From Candidatus Spongiihabitans sp. (GTDB taxonomy: Bacteria; Pseudomonadota; Gammaproteobacteria; Arenicellales; Poriferihabitantaceae): 64,000 nucleotides of DNA. The notes under the pieces were generated by a model that was not told the DNA's origin, did no database searches, and saw only the letters and a list, made by a program, of their open reading frames with translations. Of this stretch, positions 1 to 16,425 are shown in pieces (position 1 is the first letter of the stretch; the number at the start of each line of letters is the position of its first letter). The stretch spans positions 386,772 through 450,771 of the forward strand of contig OZ253450.1 of assembly GCA_965261335.1 (NCBI GenBank), read 5' to 3'. The translations under genes and the position numbers were made by a program.

Positions 1-3000
1 ACAGGGTCGGTAATTCCCGCCAAATCTGTCGCAGTAATGTCTTTACAATCGATTCCGCTGCGGGTTCTGCGGATTGTTAATACGAGTTGCTCCCTAACCG
101 CTTCGGTGCGTGAACAGACGTTTCCTATGGCAGTATCGGCAATGCTGACTGTGAAGGTTTGTTTAGCCGGCGAACTTTCCCCGTCTGTGGCAGTAACGGT
201 GATGGTGGCCGTTCCTATGGCTATTGGCGTAATGGTTACGACGCTATCCGCCACTGTAACAGTGGCGATGTCATCATCACTGGATTGTGCGGTATAGGTC
301 AACGTGTCGTTAGGATCGTTAAATTTACTCGCCACATCCACATCGCGAAGACTACCCTGTGCCACGAGGTTGGTAATATCGGCAATCGTACCTGTAATTG
401 TGGTGGGTTTTTTGACAATGACCATAAAAGTTTGTGTAGCCGTTTGTCCGGCTGTATCGGTAGCCGTTATGGTGATGGTTGTAGCCCCTCCTACGGCTAA
501 TGATGGCGTAACCGTAACTTCACCACTATCATCAACCCCAACGGTGGCGATGGTTTCATCACTGGATTGTGCAGTATAGGTCAAGGTGTCGCCGGGGTCG
601 CTAAAATTACCCGCCACATTCACGGTTTGAGCATCACCACTTGCCATGAGGTCAGTAATATCGGCAATCGTATCTACGGTTGTTGGCACTGCGGCGTTAA
701 TCGCGGTTCCTGTTGGAAGGGTTATTGCGTTTCGTGGGACATCAGCAAACAGGCTCGCAGGGAGCGAAGCAGGCAGTGGGTTTCTACTTAAATTAAGGGT
801 TGTCAAACTGGTTAAGCCCGAGAAAAGCCCAGCAGGCAAGGTGGAAAGTTGGTTGTCGTTTAAGTTCAGTGTTTGTAAGGCACTCAGTCCAGAGAATATA
901 TCGGCGGGCAAGGTGGTTAAGCTGTTATCTTGTAATTGAAGTTCTGTCAGCCCGGTTAAGCCCGCAAAATCACCATTCTTTAGTGGGCTGCTTAGGGCGA
1001 AGGCAGGAGTCCCGCCATCAAAATTTAACGCGGTAATGCTTCCCAAATCTGTCGTAGTAATCTCATCACAAGCGTCTTGATCACTCACTGCCGCGATGAT
1101 TCTTGCCTGAACGTCTGCAGAACGTGAGCAAACTTTGGCTGGATTGGTAGCTGCCACCGTGAAAGTCTGCGTAGCCGTTTGATCCGCTGTATCGGTGGCA
1201 GTGACGGTTATCTCTACGTCCCCTATGGCTACTGGGGTAATGGTTACTACGCTACCGCCCACCATAACGGTGGCGATGGCATCATTACTGGATTCAACGG
1301 TAAAGGTCAACGTGTCTATATCGCTAAAGTAGTCCGCCATATCCACCTGAAGAGGACTACTCATTGCCGCGAGATCAATATCGGCAAGCGCGGTTACAAT
1401 GGCGGGGGGTTGGTTGGTAACGGTTACCACAAAAGTCTCCGTAACCGCTTTATCCGCGCTATCGATGGCAGTAACGGTGATGGTTGTACGCCCGACAGCG
1501 ATGGGTGTAATGGTCACTACACTACCGCTGACCGTAACGGTGGCGGTGTCGTCATTACTAGACATGACTGTAAAGGTTAAAGTCTCGTTTTCGAAACCGT
1601 TAAAGTTACCCGCTACATTCAGCTCACGAGGACTATCCATTGCCACGAGGTCAATATCATTAAGTGCGTTCACAATGGTTGGGGCTGGATTGGTAACGGT
1701 TACCACAAAAGCCTGTGTAACCATTTGACCGATGGTGTCTTCGGCAGTGATGGTGATGGTTGCACTGCCTGCAGCGTTTGCCGTGATGGTGACTGTGCTA
1801 CCCACAACTTCAACGGTAGCGGTGGGAGTGTTACTGGATTCAGTGGTAAAGGTCAACATGTTGTCTGGCTCGCTATCGCTAAAATAACCAGATACATCCA
1901 CCGTGCGAATACTGCTCTGCGCCACAAGGTTATCAATATCCTCAATCGAGTTTACGACTGTGAGCAAACGAACGATGGTTACTCTAATTTCCTGTGTGTA
2001 GGTCGATACGCCGTCCGATACGGTAACTAGAACCCAATATCCTTGGTCTCCTCCACTTGAAATAATATTACCTTGCGAGTCTCTTGGGTTTTTATAATCG
2101 GGAATATACTCGTCTTGGAAGCTTAATTCTCCTGCGTTATTTATCTCAAACAACGCGGCATCGCTATTTGAAAGCGTATAGTTCAAAGTATTCGCGTCCA
2201 TATCGGTCGCGGTGATGGTGGTTACTGCTTTTGTGTTTTCGGGGAGTGTTATTTCATATGGAGACTCACCATTGTTAGAGCTAATCTCGGGTCTATGATT
2301 GGCGACAAGGGTCAAATCGTGCTGATTGTTTGTTCCAAATGAGCCAGTAGCCGCTATAGTAATGTTGTATGAATATTTATCAGTGGGCGGTGCATCGTTT
2401 ATGCTCAGGACACCCGTTGACGTTAGGGTAAACAGACCGACATCTACTCCGCCGACAAGCGTATAGCTCGGGTTTTGACCGCTTAAGGCACTATTCTGAG
2501 CCGTGAAAGTGGTTACTTCGGCTCCTGCTTCAAGTGCCGGGGACACGGATAAATCCCCAGTAATATACCAAGCACCTAGGTTCTGAATAAAATCAGATGC
2601 ACCATCAAGCATATTACTCATATTCGTTACACCGCGGACATCCCAACGGCTAATGTCTTGGTTAAAGTCAGTGGCACCCGAAAACATATTATCCATATCC
2701 GTTACCTTCCTAACATCCCAACGGCTTATGTCTTTGTTAAAGGCAGTGGCATCACGAAACATATACGCCATATTGGTCACATTGCTGACATCCCAATCAC
2801 CAATATCTCCGTCAAAGTCGGTAGCATATTCAAACAGCGTGCCCATACGATCAACATTGCTGACATCCCAATCGCCAATGTCTTGATTAAAGCTTTCAGC
2901 ATACCTAAACATACCCCACATATCTGTTACCCGAGACAAATCAGGTTGGTCGGTTGCGTCTCCTATAAGGTTGGTTGCTCCAGCAAAAGCCAGTCCCATT

Positions 3001-6000
3001 GAAGTCCATTGCTGATTTCCCCATTGGTTAATGGCGATGATACTGTTGGAATTAGTATTGCCATTCCCCGCATCAAAATAAATACGCGGGAAGTCGCCAC
3101 TAATACGGACGGTATGAGTCCCTGTATCGGCGTAAGTATGCGTGGCATTGGCGGTATAGGTCGTTGTATCTATGCCACCATCACCCCAATTTACGTTGTA
3201 ATTATAGCCACTGTCTGTTGTTGGAATGGTGATGGTCAGACCTCCTGGTACGCTCCAAGTGGTCACGAAGTCATCCAGACTCCCAGCAGGCATCTCACCT
3301 GCCCCACCATTGACGGTGATGGTGATGGTTCTACTATCCGTACCACCGCTATTAGTGGCGGTGATGAGGTAGGTGGTTAAAGGTGCAATCGCCGTTGGTG
3401 TGCCTGAAATGGTGCCAGTGGCGGTGCTAAATGACAGTCCATTACCAATGGCTGGGGCGATGCCATAGCTGACAACATTACCACCGCCACTTGAGCTGAT
3501 AGTTATAGGCTGGATAGCAGTGCCCACGGTGGCAACCAGCGTATTGGTGCTGATACTGATAATCGGGGTGGCTACGGGTGGAGTTGGTGCCGCATTGGTG
3601 ATGGTCAATGTGCGGGAATTATTCTCTCCATACCCCCCCGTTGATGTTATATCTAACGTATATGAAGGTGAACTCAGTGCTTGAGCTACGCTTAGAGACC
3701 CATCACTCAGGCTAAATAAATCCGCACCATCTCCGACAAGCGTATAACTGGGAGTTTGTCCGTTAAGTACATTGTTTTGAGCGGTGATGCTTCCTATCAC
3801 AGCATTTATCCCAGCCGTACTACCAACCGTGAACGTTAGCGTTTCTGGTAATGGGTCATCTGACGACAATTCCGCATCGGTAACATACCAAGCACCTAAG
3901 TTTTGGCTAAAGTCATCGGCACTAGCAAACATCCACGTCATATTGCTCACCTTCCTAACATCCCAACCACCGATGTCTTGGTTAAAGGCTCCAGCCTCTC
4001 TAAACATAAACTCCATACTGGTTACATCGCTGACATCCCAATCGCCTATGTCTTTGTTAAAGGCTCCAGCGTCTCTAAACATATTTTTCATATTCGTTAC
4101 ATTGCTGACATCCCAATTACCAATGTCTTGGTTAAAGGCTCTAGCATGCTGAAACATCTCACTCATATCCGTTACCTGAGACAAATCAGGTTTGTCGCTG
4201 GCTGTTCCTGCGAGTGTATCAGCCCCCTTAAAAGCACCTGCCATTGAAGTCCATTGACGACCCGCTCCCCATTGTTTGATGGCAACGATGGTGGATGAGC
4301 CATTGTCTGATCTGGTGCTAGGATAATAAATCCGCGGGAAGGTGCCGCTAATGCGGATGTCATAATCGCCTGCGTCGGCGTAAGTATGCGTGGCACCGCC
4401 TGTATGTACATCGGTGTCACTCACGTTATCGCCCCAATCAACCGTGTAATTATACGTTTCGGTAGAGAATGTTGGAATGGTGATTGTTGGATGGGTGGAT
4501 ACTATTTCCCAAGTGGTCACGAAGTCATCCAGACTCCCAGCAGGTATCTCACCTGCCCCACCATTGACGGCGATGGCTATTGTCGCAGTAGCCGTACCAC
4601 CGCTATTAGTAGCGGTGATGGTGTAGGTGGTTAAAGTTGCAATCGCCGTTGGTGTGCCTGAAATGGTGCCAGTGGCTGTGTCAAGTGTCAGTCCATCGGA
4701 GAGTGTTGGATTGATTGCAAAGAGAGCAACCACACCACCGCCACTTGAACTGATGGTTATCGCATCAATGGGACTGCCCACGGTGGCAACCAGCGTATTG
4801 GTGCTGATACTGATACTCGGGGCTAATTCAACGATTGTTACTCTAATTTCCTGTGTGCGGGTCGATACGCCATCCGATACAGAAACTAGAACGCGATATT
4901 CTTGGTCGGCGTTTTGGTCAACCACCCCATCTGAGTTTCTTGGGTTTTCATAATCTGGAATATAGGCATCCTTGAAACTTAATACGCCTGAATCCGTTAT
5001 CTCAAACAACGCGACATCGCTATTTGAAAGCGTATAGTTCAAAGTATTCGCGTCCATATCCGTCGCGGTGATGGTGGTTACCGGCTGTGTATTTTCGGGG
5101 AGCGTTATTGCATATGGAGACTCACCATTGTTAGAGCTAATCTCGGGTCTATGATTGGCGACAAGGGTCAAATCGTGCTGATTGTTTGTTCCAAATGAGC
5201 CAGAGCCAGTAGCCGCTATAGTAATGTTGTATGAAGTTTTATCAGCGGACGGTGCATCGTTTATGCTCAGGACTCCCGTTGACGTTAGGGTAAACAGACC
5301 GCCATCTACTCCGCCGGCAAGCGTATAGCTCGGGCTTTGACCGCTTAAAACACTATTCTGAGCCGTGAAAGTGGTTACTTCGTCTCCTGCTTCAAGTGCC
5401 GGGGACACGGATAAATCCCCAGTAATATACCAAGCACCTAGGTTTTGGTTAAAGGCAGTGGCATCACGAAACATATACGTCATACTCCTTACACCGCGGA
5501 CATCCCAACGGCTTATGTCTTGGTTAAAGGCTCTGGCATCACGAAACATGCTCGACATATTGGTCACATTGCTGACATCCCAATCACCAATGTCTTGGTT
5601 AAAGGCTGCGGCATTAGAAAACATCCCTTGCATATTATTTACACTGCTGACATCCCAATCACCAATGTCTTGGTCAAAGGCAATGGCATTCTGAAACATC
5701 GAATGCATACTATTTACACTACTGACATCCCAACGGCTTATGTCTTGGTTAAAGGCAGTGGCACGAGCAAACATCCACGTCATATTGGTCACATTGCTGA
5801 CATCCCAATCACCAATGTCTCGGCTAAAGGCCATCGCATTGTAGATACTCCCTAACATAAAACTCATATTAGTTACACCACTGACATCCCAATCACCAAT
5901 GTTTTGGTCAAAGGCTTCGGCATTCTGAAACATCGAGTTCATCTTGGTTACCCGAGATAAATCAGGCGTATCGCTGGCTTGTCCAGCAAGGTTGGTCGCA

Positions 6001-9000
6001 CCCCTAAAAGCACCATTCATTGAAGTCCATTGCCCTGTTCCCCATTGGTCAATGGCGATGATACTGTTGGAATTTTGGTTGCCGTTGTTATCGTGGGTAT
6101 TAAAATAAATACGCGGGAAACTGCCGCTGATACGGACTTCATAATCACCTGCGACGGCATAAGTGTGCGTGGCGTTTTCGGTCTGGTTCGTGCTGGTGCT
6201 GGTGGGACTATCACCCCAATTAACGGTGTAATGATACGTTTCGGTAGCGTATGTTGGAATGGTGATGGTCTGATCTGCGGTTACCTGCCAAGTGGTCACA
6301 AAGTCGTCTGTTGCCAATGCTTCATCACTAACGGTAATGGTGAATCCTTTAGAATAATTAAGTGTGCCATCATTCACTTGGATTCTGATGCTATAACTTG
6401 ATTTTCCTGCGGCGGGTGTTGCGAGTATTCTTAAACTGGTGCCGTCAATTATGAACAATGCGTTGTCTGTATCACCATTTCCAGCGGCTAATGTATATGT
6501 ATATGTTTCATCCGCATCCGCATCGATAACAGATAATAAACCAACTCGCTGGTGAGCCGTTGCACTGCGCACCACTGCTGTTGAAGAAAGCCCAATGTCG
6601 GTCGGGGCTGTTTCGCTGACTGGCGTGATTCTTACGATAATTTCTTGTGTATCAAAAGATATTCCATCCGATACAGAGACTAGAACGCGATATTCTTGGT
6701 CTGCGTTTTGGTCAACCACCCCATCTGAGTTTATTGGGTTTTCATAATCTGGAACACGGTCGGCTTTGAATTTTAATGTTCTTGAGTTTCCTGTTCCAGT
6801 TATCTCAAATAAATCAGAATCATACCTAGAAATAGAATAGGTCAAAATATCATTGGTATCCCCATCCGTAGCGGTGATGGTGGTGACTTCTCGTGTGTTT
6901 TCGGGGAGTGTAATTGCATATGTAGAAGCACCACCATTGGGGGCGGTAATCTGCGTAATATGATTGGTGACAAGCGTCAAATCGTGCTGATTGTTTGTTC
7001 CAAATGAGCCAATAGCCGCTATGGTAATGTTGTATGAAGTTTTTCCAGCGGGCGGTACGTCGTTTATGCTCAGGACACCTGCTGAAGTTAGGGCAAACAA
7101 ATTGGCATCACCTCCGGCGACAAGCGTATAGTTCGGATTTTGACCGCTTAAGGCACTATTCTGAGCCGTGAAAGTGGTTACTTCGTCTCCTGCTTCAAGT
7201 GCCGGGGACACGGATAAATCCCCAGTGATATACCAAGCACCTAGGTTTTGACTAAAAACAGGAGATGTGCCAAACATATTATTCATATTCGTTACACTGC
7301 GGACATCCCAACCGCTTATGTCTTTGTTAAAGACAGCGCCATTAGCAAACATCCACTGCATATCGGTCACATTGCTGACATCCCAACCGCTTATGTCTTT
7401 GTTAAATACGTCAGTATATTCAAACAGCGTGCCCATATCGGTCACATTGCTGACATTCCAATTGCCAATGTCTTGATTGAATTTTTCAGCATACCTAAAC
7501 ATACTCCGCATATTTGTTACCCGAGACAAATCAGGTTGGTCGAGTGTTGTTTGTCCTGCTAGGTTGGTTGCTCCACTAAAAGCCAGTTCCATTGAAGTCC
7601 ATTGCTGACTTCCCCATTGGTTAATGGCGATGATACTGTTGGAATTATCATTGCCTTCCCTCGCATTAAAATAAATACGCGGGAAGTCGCCACTAATACG
7701 GACGGTATAAGTCCCTGCATCGGCGTAAGTATGCGTGGCGTTGCCGGTCTGGCTCGTGTCGGTGCTACCATCGCCCCAATTTACCTTGTAACTATAGCCA
7801 CTGCCTGTTGTTGGAATGGTGATGGTCTGACTTGCCGCTACGCTCCAAGTAGTAACAAAATCATCTGTTTCTAATACGTCATCGCTCACTGTAATGGTGA
7901 ATGCCTTAGCGAAATCATTTGTGCCGTCATTAACATTGATTCTAATGCTGTAGCTTGATTTACCTGTGGCAGGTGTTGCGAGTATTCTCAAACTGGTGCC
8001 GTTAATGGTGAACAATAGGTTGTCATCATCACCATTTCCATCGGCTAACGTATATGTATATATTTCACCCGCATCCTCATCGATAACAGATAATAAACCA
8101 ACCCGCTGGCGAGCCGTTGCACTACGCACCACTGCTGTTGAAGAAAGCCCAATGTCGGTCGGGGTTGTTTCGTTGACGGGCATGATTGTTACGATAATGG
8201 TTTGCGTATCGGTCGATATTCCATCCGATACAGAGACTAGAACGCGATATTCTTGGTCGGCGTTTTGGTCAACCACCCCGAGTGAGTTTCTTGGGTTTTC
8301 ATAATCTGGAATAAAGTCATCTTTGAAACTTAATGTTCTTGAGTTTCCTGTTCCAGTTATCTCAAACAGTGCCACATCATCATTCGAAAGCGTATAGCTC
8401 AAAGTAGCATTCTCATCTCCATCTGTAGTGGTGATGGTGGTGACCGCCCGGGTATTTTCAGGGAGTGTTATTGCATAGTGAGAAACGCCATTGTTAGAAG
8501 TAATCTCGGGTCTATGATTGGCGACAAGGGTTAAAGATCGGTAGTAGATCCGTGTGTCGCTAGCGCTCTTCTTAATCACATTACCACTAACTGATATGCG
8601 GATATTATATTCATTTTTTGTAATTTCTGGACTTCCCTTTATGCTCAACACGCCTGTGCTCGTTATTGTAAAGAGATCATCATCAGTGCCACCATCAAGT
8701 CCATAGGTCGGGTTTTGACCGTTTAAGTAACTATTCTGAGCCGTGAATCGGGTGACTTCGTCCCCTGCTTCAAGTGTCGGAGGCACGGACAAATCCCCCG
8801 TAATGTACCAAAGCCCGAAGTTGGCGACAAAAAAACGAAAATTAGTTCCATCAATCATATTCTCCATATTGGTTACATTGCGGACATCCCAAGCACTGAT
8901 GTCATGCGTCATAAATGTGGCATTCTGAAACATATAACTCATGTCTGTAAGATTGCGGGTAACCCAACCGCCGATAGGTTGGTTAAAACCGAAGGCTCTT

Positions 9001-12000
9001 CTAAACATAGCCGACATATTGGTTACATTGCGGGTAACCCAATCGCCAATAGGTTGGTTAAAGATATGATTATAATTAAACATATTGTTCATGTCTGTAA
9101 CCTCGCCTGTATTCCAACCACCGATAGGTTGATTAAAGGAGCTGTGCTGAAACATTCCCGATAAATCGGTTACGCTACTGACATCCCAACCACCGATAGG
9201 TTGGTTAAAGAGTGCGGTATGAGCAAACATATTCGACATATTGGTCACCTTGCTGACATCCCAATCGCCGATGTTTTGGTTAAAGGCATCGGCATTATTA
9301 AACATATTGTTCATGTCGGTTACAGTCGATAAATCAGGTCTATCGTTTGTATCTCCAACCAAGTTACTACAGCCATAGAAGGATTTTTCCATAGAAGTCC
9401 AGCGTCCATTGCCCCATTGCTTGATGGCAATGATCTTGTCCTTGTCGCCTTCGTTATTAAAATAAATGCGCGGGAAGGTGCCACTGATACGGACTTCATA
9501 ATCATCTGCATCAGCGTAAGTATGCACGGCATTGCCTGTATAAGTAGCCGTGTCTGCTGCTTCACCACTGCCCCAATTCACGGTGTAATGATACGTTTCG
9601 GTAGCGTATGTCGGAATGGTGATGCTCTGACCTGCCGTTACCCGCCAAGTGGTAACAAAATCATCTGTTGCCAATGCGTCCTCGCTAACGGTAATGGTGA
9701 ATGTATTAGAGAAATCATTTTCACCATCATTTACATTGATTCTGATGCTGTAGCTTGATTTGCCGGCGGCAGGTGTGTCCTTTATTCTTAAACTGGTGCC
9801 GTCAATTATGAACGCTTCGTTATCTGCATCACCCACTCCAGTTATCAATGTGTATGTGTATTCGTCACCCGTCTCTGTATCAGTATTAGACAAGAACCCA
9901 ATCCGGGTGTTGGCGACTGCATTGCGAACCACTGCTTCTGAAGAAAGCATAATATTGGTCGGGGCTGGGTTCTCACCAAACATAAAGTCTCGGTGATTGT
10001 TTGTTCCAAATAAAAAATTCGCCATCGCTGATACGCTAATATCATATTTAGTTTTTGTGGGGTCGGGTGCTAGGTTTATGGTCAACACACCTGCTGGGGT
10101 TAGGGTAAAGAGATCGGCATCAGTGCCAGAAAGAGAATAAACCGAGCTGTGACTTCTTAAATGAGCATTCTGAGCCATGAAAGTGGTTACTGTACCACCT
10201 GCTTCAAGAGTGGGGGAAATAACCAAGTCAGGCACAGCAATATACCAAAGCCCAAGATTTTGATTAAAGGCGGTGGCACCAGCAAACATCGAATTCATGA
10301 ACGTTGCATTTATATTCCTCACGTCCCAACGGCTGATGTCTTGGTTAAAGGCTACGGCATTCTGAAACATCGTTTTCATATCTCCTACGAGACTCACATC
10401 CCAATCACCAATGTCTTGGTTAAAGGCAGTGGCAAAACTAAACATACTCTTCATATTCGTTACACTGCTGACATCCCACTTGCCGATGGCTTGGTTAAAG
10501 GACCGGGCATTCCGAAACATGTGCGACATATTCGTTACACTGCTGACATCCCACTTGCCGATGGCTTGGTTAAAGTACTCGGTACTCTGAAACATGTACG
10601 ACATATTCGTTACACTGCTGACATCCCAATCACTAATGTCTTGATTAAAAGCCATCCTATTGTAGGCACTCCCTAACATAGACATCATATTGGTAACACT
10701 GCTGACATCCCAATTACCAATGTTTTGGTTAAAGGCTTGGGCATTATCAAACATACCGTTCATATCGGTTAGCCGAGATAAATCAGGCGTATCGCTGGCT
10801 TGTCCAGCAAGGTTGGTCGCACCCCTAAAAGCACCATTCATTGAAGTCCATTGCCCTGTTCCCCATTGGTCAATGGCGATGATACTGTTGGAATTTTGGT
10901 TGCCGTTGCTATTGAAGTTATTAAAATAAATACGCGGGAAACTGCCGCTGATACGGACGCTATAAGTCCCTGAATCGGCGTAAGCATGCGTGGCGTTGCC
11001 GGTCTCGCTCGTGGCGTTGCTATCATCGCCCCAATTTACGGCGTAATCATAGCCATCACCTGTTGTTGGAATGGTAATGGTCTGACCTGCCGTTACCTGC
11101 CAAGTGGTCACGAAGTCGTCTGTTGCCAATGCTTCATCACTAACGGTAATGGTGAATGTTTTGGAGTAACCAAGTACGCCATCATTCCCTCGGATTCGGA
11201 TTCTGATGCTGTAGATTGTCCTTTCTGCGGTGGGTGTTGCGTTTATTCTTAAACTGCTACCGTCAATGGTGAATGCGTCATTGTCATCATCACCATTTCC
11301 AGCGGCTAACGTATATGTATATATTTCACCCGCATCCGCATCGATAACAGATAATAAACCAACCCGCTGGCGAGCCATTGCACTACGCACCACTGCTGTT
11401 GAAGAAAGCCCAATGTCGGTCGGGTCTGTTTCGTTGACTGGCGTGATTCTTACGATAATTTCTTGTGTATCAAAAGATGTTCCATCCGATACAGTAACCA
11501 GAACACGATATTCTTGGTCGGCGTTTTGGTCAACTACCCCATCTGAGTTTCTTGGGTTTTCATAATCTGGAATAAAGTCATCTTTGAATCTTAATGTTCT
11601 TGAGTTTCCTGTCCCTGTTATCTCAAACAGTGCGGCATCGTTATTTGAAAGCGTATAGGTCAAAGTATCATTGGTATCCCCATCCGTAGCGGTGAGGGTG
11701 GTCACTTCTCGTATGTTTTCGGGGAGCGTTATTGCATATGGAGACTCACCATTGTTAGAGCTAATCTCGGGTCTATGATTGGCGACAAGGGTCAAATCGT
11801 GCTGATTGTTTGTTCCAAATGAGCCAGTAGCCGCTATGGTAATGTTGTATGAAGTTTTATCAGCGGGCGGTGCATCGTTTATGCTCAGGACACCCGTTGA
11901 CGTTAGGGTAAACAGACCGACATCTACTCCGCCGACAAGCGTATAGCTCGGGTTTTGACCGCTTAAGGCACTATTCTGAGCCGTAAACCGAGTTACTTCG

Positions 12001-14126
12001 GCTCCTGCTTCAAGTGCCGGGGACACGGATAAATCCCCAGTGATATACCAAGCACCTAGGTTTTGACTAAAAGCAGGTGTGTTGTTACCAAGCATATTAC
12101 TCATATTCGTTACACCGCGGACATCCCAACGGCTAATGTCTTGGTTAAAGGCAGTGGCACTAGCAAACATCCACTCCATATTGGTCACATTGCTGACATC
12201 CCAATCACCAATATCTTGGTTAAAGTCGTCAGTATGTTCAAACAGCGTGCCCATACGCTCAACATTGCTGACATCCCAATCGCCGATGTCTTGATTGAAT
12301 TTTTCAGCATGCCTAAACATACCCCACATATCTGTTACCCGAGACAAATCAGGTCGGTCGGTTGTTGTTTGTCCTGCTAGGTTGGTTGCTCCACTAAAAG
12401 CCTGTTCCATTGAAGTCCATTGCTGATTTCCCCATTGGTCAATGGCGATGATACTGTTGGAATTATCATTGCCATTCCCCGCATTAAAATAAATACGCGG
12501 GAAGTCGCCACTAATACGGACGGTATGAGTCCCTGTCACGGTGTAAGCATGCGTGGCATTGCCAGTATAGGTCGTTGTATCTATGCCATCATCACCCCAA
12601 TTTACGGTGTAACTATAGCCACTGCCTGTTGTTGGAATGGTGATCGTCTGACCGTCCGTTACGCTCCAAGTGGTCACGAAATCACCCGAGTCACCTAACG
12701 GACTCCCAGCAGGCATCTCGCCTGCTCCACCATTAACAGTGATGGTGATGGTTCCACTATCCGTACCACCACTATTAGTGGCGGTGATGAAGTAGGTGGT
12801 TAAAGTTGCAATCGCCGTTGGTGTGCCTGAAATGGTGCCAGTGGCTGTGCTAAATGACAGTCCAGCGGGAAGTGTTGGATCGATGCTGTAGCTCTCAACA
12901 TTACCACCGCCACTTGAGCTGATAGTTATATCCGCGATAGCAGTGCCCACGGTGGCAACCAGCGTATTGGGGCTGATACTGATACTCGGGGCGGCTATGG
13001 GGGCTGTTATTGCCGCATTGATGATGGTCAATGTGCGGGAATTATTCTCTCCATACCCCCCCGTTGATGTTATACCTAACGTATATGAAGGTGAACTCAG
13101 TGCTTGAGCTACGCTTAGAGACCCACCAATCAGGCTAAATAAATCCGCACCATCTCCGACAAGCGCATAACTGGGAGTTTGTCCGTTAAGTTCATTGTTT
13201 TGAGCGGTGATGCTTCCTATCACAGCACCTATCCCAGCCGTACTACCAACCGTGAACGTTAGCGTTTCTGGTAATGGGTCATCTGACGGCAATTCCGCAT
13301 CGGTAATATACCAAGCGCCTAGGTTTTGGATAAAGCCAAAGCCAGGGGCAGATGAAGAGGCTAAAAAAAACATCTCGCTCATATCGATAACCTTCCTAAC
13401 ATCCCAACCACCAATGTCTTGGTTAAAGACTCTAGCACCACTAAACATAAACGCCATACTGGTCACATCGCTGACATCCCAATTGCCTATGTCTTGGTTA
13501 AAGGCGGTAGCGTCTCTAAACATCTCACTCATATCCGTTACCCGAGACAAATCAGGTTTGTCGCTGGCTGTTCCTGCGAGTGCATAAGCCCCCTTAAAAG
13601 CACCCGCCATTGAAGTCCATTGACGACCCGCTCCCCATTGTTTGATGGCAACGATGGTGGATGAGCCATTGTCTGAGGAGGTGCTAGGATAATAAATCCG
13701 TGGGAAGGTGCCGCTAATGCGGATGTCATAATCGCCTGCGTCGGCGTAAGTATGCGTGGCACCGCCTGTATGTACATCGGTGTCACTCACGTTATCGCCC
13801 CAATCAACCGTGTAATTATACGTTTCGGTAGAGAATGTTGGAATGGTGATTGTTGAATGGGTGGATACTATTTTCCAAGTGGTAACGAAGTCATTCAAGC
13901 CTTGTGCATTAGCCAGCTGTGCGACAAACAATAGTGCAAAGAAAGTGGCGACGAATAGGCACTTCAGAGGTGCGGACAAAATACCACAACGATTTGATGT
14001 GGCTGTCCGTGCTGTTTTGAGTTGCGTTGCAATTGAAATCATCGCCCTACCCCATAAGCCGAACGCGGATTGTGGGGTGGTAACTATATGATTATTAATG
14101 GTTTTTATGATGAACGATGATTTCAT
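1..14126 (-). CDS. Giant modular surface/adhesin-like protein; 5' end complete, 3' end beyond the left window edge (>=4708 codons in window). Signal peptide, 8 iterated modules (TTW..WGD..THxY..FPRIYF beta-sandwich + DUF285/26-residue repeats + cadherin-like/He_PIG-like domains), then Ig-like domains and LRR blocks
   Basis: Hand translation of the minus strand from ATG 14126-14124 gives [13 protein letters not shown]...[59 protein letters not shown]. This has a hydrophobic core plus an AxA-type cleavage site; an alternative ATG lies at 14042. The frame (first codon base = 2 mod 3) was translated by hand over 14126-~10500, 9340-6280, 1142-900 and 299-240 without a stop. The motif D-F-V-T-T-W recurs in this same frame at 13892, 12683, 11117, 9662, 7862, 6305, 4526 and 3272. 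The ORF track lists no minus-strand ORF in this frame across 14 kb, as expected if the ORF has no stop in the window. Repeats of the type [20 protein letters not shown] match the DUF285/TIGR02167-type surface repeat. Segments such as [15 protein letters not shown]...[30 protein letters not shown] are cadherin-like. Confidence 0.85.
2250..4530. repeat. Copy A of the ~2.2-kb intragenic duplication (giant-gene modules 7-8)
   Basis: See copy B. Shadow ORF pairs are near-identical: 3784..4152 with 13207..13587, and 3009..3380 with 12420..12698. Confidence 0.85.
11730..13895. repeat. Copy B of a ~2.2-kb intragenic long-range duplication (giant-gene modules 1-2)
   Basis: Long stretches are identical or near-identical to 2250-4530. 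For example, 11881-11940 is identical to 2401-2460, and 11941-12060 is near-identical to 2461-2580. Offsets run from ~9480 down to ~9367 nt, implying a ~23-codon indel inside the DUF285 block. Shadow ORFs 13538..13786 and 4172..4420 differ at only a few residues. Confidence 0.85.
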
Positions 14127-14213
14127 TTGGAATATTCTCTTGATTGAAGTATTCGTGAGGCTGATGGGTTGAATTCACCGCCCTCACTCGACAGCGTTAC
14201 TGTAGCACAACTA

Positions 14214-14857
14214 ATTGAAAATTGAAAATTGAGAAGCAACCTAGTCCGTCATTCCTGCGGAAGCAGGAATCCAGTAAAATAAATATTCTTATCTAATTGA
14301 AAATTGAAAATTGAAAATTGAAAATTGAGAAGCAACCTAGTCCGTCATTCCTGCGGAAGCAGGAATCCAGTAAAATAAATATTCTTATCTAATTGAAAAT
14401 TGAAAATTGAAAATTGAGAAGCAACCTAGTCCGTCATTCCTGCGGAAGCAGGAATCCAGTAAAATAAATATTCTTATCTAATTGAAAATTGAAAATTGAA
14501 AATTGAAAATTGAAAATTGAAAATTGAAAATTGAGAAGCAACCTAGTCCGTCATTCCTGCGGAAGCAGGAATCCAGTAAAATAAATATTCTTATCTAATT
14601 GAAAATTGAGAAGCAACCTAGTCCGTCATTCCTGCGGAAGCAGGAATCCAGTAAAATAAATATTCTTATCTAATTGAAAATTGAAAATTGAAAATTGAAA
14701 ATTGAGAAGCAACCTAGTCCGTCATTCCTGCGGAAGCAGGAATCCAGTAAAATAAATATTCTTATCTAATTGAAAATTGAAAATTGAAAATTGAGAAGCA
14801 ACCTAGTCCGTCATTCCTGCGGAAGCAGGAATCCAGTAAAATAAATATTCTTATCCA
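14214..14857. repeat. Nested tandem repeat array: 7 x [ (ATTGAAA)n + identical 68-bp hairpin-containing core ], n = 2,4,3,7,1,4,3
   Basis: The core ATTGAGAAGCAACCTAGTCCGTCATTCCTGCGGAAGCAGGAATCCAGTAAAATAAATATTCTTATCTA starts at 14228, 14324, 14413, 14530, 14605, 14701 and 14790. The only mismatch is at 14856. Heptamer tracts start at 14214, 14296, 14392, 14481, 14598, 14673 and 14769. Unit lengths are 82, 96, 89, 117, 75, 96 and 89 bp, i.e. 68+7n. Confidence 0.95.
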
Positions 14858-14972
14858 TAGCCGTCATTCTCAATTATCAACACCCTTATAAGGGGGCTTT
14901 GGGCTAACATCGGTGTCAAAAGCGGTCTCAATCGCTCATTTATAAGTATAAACGCCCTCTCTCTGCGTGCTT

Positions 14973-15000
14973 TTGTTATTGCCAGCAAGCAGGTTATAAT
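14973..15000 (+). promoter_or_regulatory. Candidate sigma70-type promoter for the aminotransferase gene
   Basis: Consensus -10 TATAAT at 14995-15000, 16-bp spacer, and -35-like TTGTTA at 14973-14978. It lies ~55 nt upstream of ATG 15055. Sequence match only. Confidence 0.35.
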
Positions 15001-15054: not shown

Positions 15055-16425
15055 ATGCGAACCTATGATACGACAGAATTGCGTCAAATAGATGCAAATC
15101 ATCATATACACCCATTCACTGACCATAAGGCGATGTACAAAAGTGGTACACGCATTATTACGAGTGCGGAAAATATCTATATTTATGACAGCGATGGGAA
15201 TCGCTATCTCGATGCTATGTCTGGTTTGTGGTGCGTCAATATCGGCTATGGCAGAACCGAGTTAGCGGAAGTTGCAAAATCACAGATGGAGCAACTGCCT
15301 TACTACAATAGTTTCTTTCAATGTGCGCAATTACCTGCGGTGGAATTGGCAGAAATACTTGCTGAGGTAACGCCGCCACAAATGAAGCGCGCGTTTTTCG
15401 GCTGTTCTGGCTCTGATGGCAATGACACCGTTTTGCGTTTGGTACGCTACTTCTGGGAAATTCAAGGACATGCCGAACGTAATATCGTGATTAGCAGACG
15501 CAATGCCTATCACGGTAGCACGATGGCAGGTGCGAGTCTTGGTGGCATGGCTGCCATGCATGCACAAGGGGGTTTGCCGATTCCCAATATCGAGCATATC
15601 GATCAACCCTATTTCTATGGCGAGGGTGGCAATGTTAGCCTCGAAGAATTTGGATTGCAGCGTGCCCAAGCACTCGAACAGCGCATATTAGAATTAAGCC
15701 CCGAGCGCGTTGCAGCGTTTATTGCCGAACCCATTCAGGGTGCTGGTGGGGTGATTATTCCGCCGGATAATTATTGGCCAGAAATCAACCGCATCTGCCA
15801 GAAATATGATGTATTGCTGTGCGCCGATGAAGTGATTTGCGGTTTTGGGCGAACCGGCGAATGGTTTGGCTCGGACACCTTTGGCATCGAAGCCGATGTG
15901 ATGACACTGGCAAAAGGATTATCCGCTGGCTATCAACCCATCAGCGCGGTTATGATTGCCGATAGAATCGCTACGATTCTCGACCACAACGGTGGCGAGT
16001 TTGTGCATGGTTATACCTATTCCGGTCACCCTGTAGCATGTGCGGTGGCATTAAAAAATATCCAAATTTTGCGTGATGAACGCATTATCGAAAAGGCACG
16101 CGAGAACACGATGGATTATTTTCAATCCAAAATTGCTGCCCTTGAATCACATCCTTTGGTCGGCGAAGCACGCACCAAGGGGTTTCTTGGCGGTTTGGAA
16201 CTGGTTGCAGATAAACAGAGCAAACGTCGATTCGACGAGGACGGCAGTGCGGGTACACTCTGTCGAGAAAATTGTCTGAAAAATGGTGTAGTGGTGCGTG
16301 CTGTGGACGATACAATGGTGTTATGTCCACCTCTGATTATTACCCGCGCACAAATTGATGAATGTTACGATCTCATTTGGACGAGCCTAGAACAATCATT
16401 GGTCGAACTTAAAAATCGTGCTTAG
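15055..16425 (+). CDS. Class-III (omega) PLP-dependent aminotransferase, SpuC/putrescine- or beta-alanine--pyruvate transaminase-like
   Basis: 456 aa. Family motifs are present: LWCVNIGYG, AYHGST, FIAEPIQGAGGVI, DEVICGFGRTG, and the PLP-lysine context TLAKGLSAGYQP. Substrate specificity is not determinable from the sequence. Confidence 0.85.
   Translation: MRTYDTTELRQIDANHHIHPFTDHKAMYKSGTRIITSAENIYIYDSDGNRYLDAMSGLWCVNIGYGRTELAEVAKSQMEQLPYYNSFFQCAQLPAVELAEILAEVTPPQMKRAFFGCSGSDGNDTVLRLVRYFWEIQGHAERNIVISRRNAYHGSTMAGASLGGMAAMHAQGGLPIPNIEHIDQPYFYGEGGNVSLEEFGLQRAQALEQRILELSPERVAAFIAEPIQGAGGVIIPPDNYWPEINRICQKYDVLLCADEVICGFGRTGEWFGSDTFGIEADVMTLAKGLSAGYQPISAVMIADRIATILDHNGGEFVHGYTYSGHPVACAVALKNIQILRDERIIEKARENTMDYFQSKIAALESHPLVGEARTKGFLGGLELVADKQSKRRFDEDGSAGTLCRENCLKNGVVVRAVDDTMVLCPPLIITRAQIDECYDLIWTSLEQSLVELKNRA

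Follow-up and report, generated by a model that had tools for sequence, protein, structure and literature searches.

A nested array of heptamer tracts and REP hairpins, similar to the NIME arrays of Neisseria, upstream of a giant BspA-family gene in a relative of Candidatus Spongiihabitans

In the neisserial intergenic mosaic element (NIME) arrays of Neisseria, 20-bp dRS3 hairpins alternate with repeat sequence (RS) elements of 50-150 bp, with a wave in G+C content along the DNA (PMC1797815). These arrays vary between strains and flank surface-protein genes, and have been suggested to serve as targets of recombinases and so to favour exchange of the neighbouring genes (PMC1797815). The dRS3 repeats are the neisserial members of CGTC-1, a family of repetitive extragenic palindromes (REPs) in which a CGTC or TGTC tag, left unpaired, stands before an 8-bp stem whose first bases are AT, with a loop of 4 nt and the tail CCA (Di Nocera et al. 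2013, PMC3733652). Another variable repeat, (ATCTTTC)n of Haemophilus hmw1A, lies upstream of a large adhesin gene and is transcribed in the 5' untranslated region (5'-UTR), and expression falls as n rises (PMC12721329, PMC2424069). Here we describe a nested tandem array at positions 14214-14857 (plus strand, 644 bp) of a 64,000-nt stretch of contig OZ253450.1, hereafter the window. The array consists of seven units, each made of an (ATTGAAA)n tract and a 68-bp core, and lies between a giant adhesin-like gene and a divergent aminotransferase gene, as a preliminary description of this DNA had placed it. The best overall explanation, to which we give a probability of about 70%, is a NIME-like REP array with an embedded microsatellite, which came from local amplification and changes through slippage and unequal recombination.

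In its centre each core has the sequence CGTC / ATTCCTGC / GGAA / GCAGGAAT / CCA. The CGTC tag stands 5' of all seven hairpins, the stem of ATTCCTGC and GCAGGAAT around the GGAA loop is a mismatch-free 8-bp stem in 7/7 copies with a folding energy of -12.1 kcal/mol in every unit, and CCAG, which contains the CCA tail, follows directly 3' of the hairpin, again in 7/7. Since tag, stem, loop and tail of the published family (PMC3733652) are all present in every core, the core centre is, on its four sequence features, a canonical CGTC-tagged REP of the family CGTC-1, and the earlier statement that no described repeat class such as REP fits the array was wrong. Clustering, as seen here, is also known for CGTC-1 REPs in Neisseria and Wolbachia, and the family has no known dedicated transposase (PMC3733652). 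A difference is that the hairpin here sits within a longer identical 68-bp core that alternates with a microsatellite.

The two levels of repetition reported in the preliminary description were reproduced. The core was found seven times at the same starts, with C for T at 14856 as the sole mismatch and with 0 matches in 100 shuffles, and both Tandem Repeats Finder and direct reading gave the same ATTGAAA counts before the cores, so that the unit length is 68+7n. From the giant gene outwards on the plus strand, two heptamers (tract 1, 14214-14227, nearest the giant gene) precede core 1 (14228-14295, hairpin 14247-14273), which begins with the variant heptamer ATTGAGA. Then follow tract 2 with four units (14296-14323) and core 2 (14324-14391, hairpin 14343-14369), tract 3 with three units (14392-14412) and core 3 (14413-14480, hairpin 14432-14458), tract 4 with seven units (14481-14529) and core 4 (14530-14597, hairpin 14549-14575), tract 5 with one unit (14598-14604) and core 5 (14605-14672, hairpin 14624-14650), tract 6 with four units (14673-14700) and core 6 (14701-14768, hairpin 14720-14746), and finally tract 7 with three units (14769-14789) and core 7 (14790-14857, hairpin 14809-14835), which carries the T to C change. 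A third level, missed earlier, is a 377-bp block of four units that is partly duplicated: 14296-14480 and 14673-14857 are one base apart, and there is an exact 259-nt match at offset 377. To the right of the array a remnant (14858-14880, plus strand) reads CATAGCCGTCATTCTCAATTATCAA and includes a second CCGTCATTC and two inverted heptamers. Its 14-nt arm (14867-14880) shows 93% complementarity to TTGAAAATTGAGAA, which stands before each core, and this inverted repeat closes the unit. The GC content is 32% in the array and 46% in the window (45.7%), in which core, hairpin and heptamer tract are all found nowhere else. The array also proved to be non-coding as described, as it has no ATG-initiated open reading frame (ORF) of 20 aa or more, only TTG-initiated frames of 20-38 aa. 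Each unit carries the same TTG-initiated frame of 24 aa (MKIEKQPSPSFLRKQESSKINILI) through the hairpin (14222-14891, plus strand); such REP-derived TTG frames could easily be mis-annotated as small proteins by gene callers.

Compared with the NIME arrays, the locus shares a general plan of 20-bp inverted repeats alternating with AT-richer segments. The gaps between hairpins are 76, 69, 97, 55, 76 and 69 bp, all within the 50-150 bp spacing of NIME, and a G+C wave is seen, with 0.50 in the hairpins against 0.24-0.31 in the spacers. As in NIME, the array is syntenic with a repeat number that varies between strains (here four alleles, see below), the adjoining surface-protein gene has diverged above average (97.9% identity as against 99.7% for the other flank), and the hairpins appear as targets for integration of insertion sequences (ISs) or phages. 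Several features differ. The dRS3 consensus ATTCCCNNNNNNNNGGGAAT is not matched, as the arms are ATTCCT...AGGAAT here and ATTCCC...GGGAAT there, a single compensated change per arm pair that keeps 5/6 positions. Only one spacer family is present, in which just the heptamer number varies, compared with a mosaic of >100 RS families, all hairpins have one orientation, and spacer length is set by the heptamer microsatellite. The host is a gammaproteobacterium near Candidatus Spongiihabitans and not Neisseria. Because the strict dRS3 consensus, the RS mosaic and the genus all fail, we call the array NIME-like and not NIME. The clusters of GTAG-type REPs (bacterial interspersed mosaic elements and REPINs) are also similar, in that short palindromes are reiterated with flanking DNA in intergenic regions and amplification and clustering go together. 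They differ by their GTAG tag, the link to a RAYT transposase, a usually alternating orientation and the lack of an embedded microsatellite.

Other classes of element were considered and rejected. A CRISPR was discarded, since the 'spacers' are runs of one heptamer and no cas gene is adjacent; the neighbours are the adhesin-like gene, the aminotransferase, an epimerase and PGI. Iterons and a toxin-antitoxin RNA array were discarded as well, as there is no adjacent rep or toxin gene and the spacers are not unique. Rfam gave no significant match for the array, only two sub-threshold FtrB matches (E = 0.16 and 0.95, with a gathering score of 66 bits) which we take as chance, so that a known RNA family was rejected. 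An RNA-family scan of the whole window returned two tRNAs only.

The hairpin itself is not private to this locus. In a scan of species-representative genomes for the bare 20-mer ATTCCTGCGGAAGCAGGAAT, the identical sequence was found at at least 119 loci in very diverse phyla, and it therefore represents a very widespread REP type. Among the matches listed, the phyla are Nitrospirota, Chloroflexota (Dehalococcoidia), Planctomycetota, Thermodesulfobacteriota, Bacteroidota, Gammaproteobacteria and candidate phyla; in the same matches the tag is TGTC or CGTC (YGTC) in 134/154 occurrences (87%), the CCA tail is present in 123/154 (80%), and 73/154 (47%) have an inverted CGTC-type partner at most 120 nt away. 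In 2013, five phyla had been listed for CGTC REPs (PMC3733652), a far narrower range than the one seen here. A few of the genomes listed have hairpin units in tandem arrays, with periods of 89-113 bp, and none of these matches has an embedded microsatellite. Such arrays, of up to about nine copies, were seen in L026, L036, L048 (OZ245366.1, Thermodesulfobacteriota) and L078 (Desulfobacterales HSG2), where the units hold the same hairpin and a second, inverted CGTC-type hairpin. A core-specific 21-mer matched only one unrelated lone REP in JGI metagenomes, the hairpin had only 3 matches in IMG/VR, and the repeat unit had no match in plasmids and phages. The lone REP is a CGTC-type palindrome, AACCTAGTCCGTCATTCCTGCCTTCGCGGGAATGACG, just past the stop of a 762-aa ORF (L128, an unrelated JGI metagenome contig, 2330-2375), and has 13 nt upstream of the hairpin stem (AACCTAGTCCGTC) in common with the core in the window.

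Further alleles of the array were found through the exact aminotransferase protein on two contigs, L001 and L002, and through the N-terminus of the giant protein in another sample (L132), with coverage of 457x, 11x and 4x, respectively. Of the neighbouring genes, the epimerase led back to L002 only, and a 300-aa protein has no entry on record. The window allele has 7 cores with tracts of 2, 4, 3, 7, 1, 4 and 3 heptamers, the L001 allele has 4 cores and a gene-proximal tract of 26, and the L132 allele has 2 full cores and a partial one, with tracts of 4, 30 and 7. The L002 allele has 5 hairpins, one truncated core, and long tracts that mix ATTGAAA, ATTGAGA and ATTGATA. Odd units of 5 and 6 nt in the low-coverage L002 and L132 may be sequencing errors. 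In the tract nearest the gene the number of units is 2 in the window, 26 in L001, at least 13 in L002 and 3 in L132, and over all tracts of the four alleles it ranges from 1 to 30. The left boundary and the 87-bp leader between the array and the giant-gene ATG (14127-14213, minus strand) are the same in 4/4 alleles, the leader being identical throughout, and the right boundary is the same in the three alleles that keep the aminotransferase side. Thus, boundaries and core are the same, yet the core number and every heptamer count differ, which bears out the ongoing slippage and unequal exchange proposed in the preliminary description. Orthologous tracts at other loci differ as well between co-occurring strains of a sister species (8 vs 10, 6 vs 3, 4 vs 5 and 6 vs 5 units). 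Because the alleles are restructured and the sister-species tracts also differ between strains, heptamer slippage and unequal exchange between cores are well supported by these comparisons.

The housekeeping flanks of the window and L001 are 99.7% identical over 11.8 kb, while the giant gene is 97.9% (L001) and 95.3% (L002) identical to that of the window. It contains many internal repeats with a 75-bp period and has, in both comparisons, diverged far more than the housekeeping side. Beyond the array, L132 has DNA with no relation to the window, which carries pdxJ and genes for a sugar transferase and an epimerase. What stays together is the array with its identical leader, the same start (MKSSFII) and a giant gene that is 95% identical over 5.4 kb. 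This linkage was kept despite the replaced far flank, and the array therefore belongs to the 5' end of the giant gene. In this comparison the far end of the array is a rearrangement breakpoint, which is shown once.

The origin of the unit could be traced by comparison with the sister species, which comes from the same metagenome (aminotransferase 85% identical, circular 2.92-Mb contig) and is the only other organism that has the core beyond the hairpin. Here, (ATTGANA)n tracts of 2-8 units are present at about 10 sites in 21 kb, joined to positions 1-54 of the core or, in inverted orientation, to its positions 31-66, and there are several copies of the CGTC-1 hairpin per 21 kb; further hairpin copies also lie beside the array in L132. 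The last unit and right flank of the window array (14762-14890, reverse strand) align with the end of a dispersed element of the sister species as far as the hairpin loop. The core is thus not unique to one promoter, which the preliminary description had left as a question, and judged from these alignments the heptamer and core module is a dispersed composite repeat in the sister species, similar to a MITE (miniature inverted-repeat transposable element). The orthologous site of the sister species, just 5' of the conserved aminotransferase promoter, holds a single degenerate copy, CCGTC-ATTCCTGC, a 45-nt insert and GCAGGAAT-CCAGTAAAA, then TCATTATCAATTATCAAT. The element was therefore at the site before the species split, and since the sister has a single copy, the array is a local tandem amplification that took place only in the window lineage. 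By this comparison, what was amplified is one copy of the dispersed composite repeat, a CGTC-1 REP hairpin with an (ATTGANA)n microsatellite, and the microsatellite, as far as the alignments tell, also forms the inverted ends of the composite repeat. Like bacterial MITEs (Correia/NEMIS, Nezha), the ancestral unit is a short element without coding function that has dispersed copies in the sister species, and the unit here is bounded by inverted repeats (14 nt, 93%). In contrast to MITEs, the inverted ends are a slippage-prone heptamer repeat and the unit is tandemly amplified here and not dispersed. Neither a target-site duplication nor a cognate transposase was identified.

The sister locus has features of its own. 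Four paralogous genes for CCDC90-like tail-anchored coiled-coil proteins (L122 12718-13194, 15291-15920, 16559-17101 and 18734-19396, minus strand) have differing numbers of an ANTEAxLKxxI repeat, and an (ATTGANA)n tract lies about 44 bp upstream of each ATG, which makes them a second variable membrane-protein family with the heptamer repeat. At L122 1-651 there are genes for DarT and a Macro-domain protein, a DarTG-like toxin-antitoxin pair.

The giant gene is transcribed away from the array, and its ATG (14126, minus strand) is 87 nt from it. Only the 5' part of this BspA-family surface-protein gene is in the window (3-14126, minus strand), 4708 codons that run off the window start, and in L001 the product is >6276 aa. 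The ORF has 14 DUF285 stretches together with LRR_8, He_PIG and Big_2, and its homologues are named BspA-family leucine-rich-repeat surface proteins. On the other side, the class-III aminotransferase gene (15055-16425, plus strand) has its ATG 197 nt from the array, and its best sigma-70-like promoter (TTGTTA-16-TATAAT, 10/12; 14973-15000, plus strand) is outside the array, with a -10 region that is kept in related species. In a synteny comparison the giant gene was absent upstream of the aminotransferase genes of related species. Other genes in the window are of the core chromosome (rpoB, rpoC, EF-G, EF-Tu, rpoA, secY, ftsH and L2). The nearest named relatives of the aminotransferase, with 81-82% identity, are from Candidatus Spongiihabitans (Gammaproteobacteria, Arenicellales), which we take to be sponge symbionts; it is by this one protein that the host is assigned. 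An origin from Neisseriaceae, suggested by the dRS3 resemblance, was rejected on the basis of these relatives and because no 12-mer similar to a DNA uptake sequence is over-represented in the window.

As the comparison of alleles shows, the heptamer tracts of the NIME-like array lengthen and shorten by slipped-strand mispairing, and unequal recombination between the identical cores duplicates or removes whole units and multi-unit blocks. In this way the number of cores and all tract lengths are reshuffled between strains with nearly identical flanking genes. The gene-proximal heptamers would cover the -35 and the upstream region of the only plausible promoter of the giant gene. The candidate extended -10 of this promoter, TGCTACAGT (14207-14199, minus strand), is below the threshold of the promoter scan, and the matching -35 position (14227-14222, TTTCAA) would fall within the second heptamer. 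Two or three proximal heptamers as compared with 26 would then put different DNA from about -45 upstream. Possibly, such changes alter adhesin expression between lineages, as (ATCTTTC)n does for Haemophilus hmw1A; by this analogy an effect on expression is plausible, and we rate its chances somewhat below even.

The analogy goes some way. As in Haemophilus influenzae hmw1A/hmw2A, a very large adhesin gene has a heptanucleotide simple-sequence repeat directly upstream of it, with a copy number that varies between strains, and the array shows two marks of an hmw1A-type contingency locus, a tract 5' of a surface-protein gene and a tract length that is polymorphic between isolates. The differences are a single tract there and several tracts interleaved with REP cores here, and another repeat sequence.

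Several observations weigh against the explanation that we prefer. No promoter on the giant-gene strand in or near the array is above the scan threshold except a 9/12 site at the far edge (14873-14844), and this site is not kept in L132. In the sister species, members of this repeat family also occur away from promoters, as between convergent genes, so that the family as a whole is not characterised by a regulatory role. All alleles come from distinct strains, since their flanks differ, so that the variation seen is variation between strains. Finally, published CGTC REPs are mostly head-to-head dimers and the head-to-tail arrangement is reported as negligible (PMC3733652); the seven head-to-tail copies on the plus strand, with no inverted partner, thus make the array atypical for the family, a preference that is an organisational tendency of CGTC REPs and not a sequence criterion.

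The strongest alternative is that the array is neutral DNA, selfish or structural, which an unstable repeat family leaves behind as a by-product, with no effect on neighbouring genes and with a variability that reflects mutation rate only. The varied contexts of the family in the sister species would fit this, as would an array structure that is not conserved among the alleles, an aminotransferase promoter outside the array and the failure to find a strong promoter or terminator signal; a terminator function was rejected, as there is no terminator-like site in the region. Folding beyond the small hairpin is also unremarkable, no better than shuffles (z = -1.4 and -0.4), so that an extended RNA or DNA structure beyond the 8-bp hairpin was rejected; for the last unit with its flank z was -1.95. 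Against neutrality, the array kept its place at the giant gene's 5' end when the other flank was exchanged in a rearrangement, its first heptamers fall at the expected -35 and upstream promoter region, and heptamer tracts lie about 44 bp upstream of the second variable membrane-protein gene family in the sister species. We regard neutrality as less likely than not.

The array could instead be a landing pad for recombination, as proposed for NIME, through which the adhesin gene next to it would be rearranged or have its alleles replaced. The sister species has an IS110-family element with the inverted ends AACCCCCCTAGCCCCCC and GGGGGATTTAGGGGGTT in L122 (13368-14917, 16076-16120 and from 19549 onward) and likewise in L123. 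In every case the left end of this element directly adjoins ...GTCGTTCCT/ within a CGTC hairpin, and an uninterrupted copy of the site lies nearby. At about L122 16076 there is a mini-derivative with nothing but the two ends. The left junction has at its end CT, the core dinucleotide conserved in IS110, and REPs are known IS110 targets. In line with this, the far end of the array is the breakpoint in L132 and the giant gene is more diverged than the other flank. Against it, an IS110 transposase is absent from the 64-kb window and there is no IS in any of the four array alleles, only a single breakpoint was observed, and giant repetitive genes diverge fast for other reasons. The right IS junction has no clean match to the empty site, so that the IS110-target claim depends on the left junction. 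Overall we find the landing pad unlikely.

Less likely still is an element transcribed in the 5'-UTR, where a start upstream of or inside the array would place (UUUCAAU)n and REP hairpins in the leader to control processing or stability of the mRNA. The heptamer repeat of hmw1A, with RNase III, is the precedent (PMC12721329, PMC2424069), the far-edge 9/12 site is on the giant-gene strand, the hairpin of every unit is stable, and neither stop codons nor terminators are present on the minus strand of the heptamer tracts. This reading loses its promoter-like site in L132, where the flank was replaced, the heptamers have no long-range pairing partner except the short right-flank inverted repeat, and support from covariation or Rfam is absent. 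An equally improbable reading would be a two-parameter contingency switch for a giant host-interaction adhesin, in which core number and tract lengths jointly set its expression and the hairpins are also targets of an IS110/bridge-type recombinase that moves the promoter module and exchanges adhesin alleles. An artefact of long-read metagenome assembly, which the irregular 5- and 6-nt units in L002 (11x) and L132 (4x), resembling homopolymer errors, could suggest, is very unlikely because four concordant contigs from at least two samples, one of them at 457x, show the same building blocks within identical boundaries, and the window array is internally exact and, at 644 bp, far shorter than a long read.

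Taken together, these comparisons indicate that the array is a fast-evolving variant of a known repeat type and not a new class. It illustrates that CGTC/dRS3-type REP hairpins can give rise to hypervariable arrays well beyond Neisseria, in this case next to a BspA-type gene of >6,000 codons in a sponge-symbiont lineage. The identical hairpin occurs across many phyla, and CGTC REPs have no known transposase. A microsatellite built into a REP array, with three nested levels of length variation, is a new structural combination; a full-text search of the available literature returned no prokaryotic report of 'nested tandem repeats', which is weak evidence of rarity and not proof. The variation can be scored directly from long-read metagenomes. 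If the array was such a two-parameter contingency switch, it would be the first case outside Neisseria of a NIME-like variation system and would give the first evidence for phase variation in a symbiosis of this kind, and if adhesin expression is tuned by the array, one could see from it how uncultivated symbionts diversify the proteins by which they contact their host.

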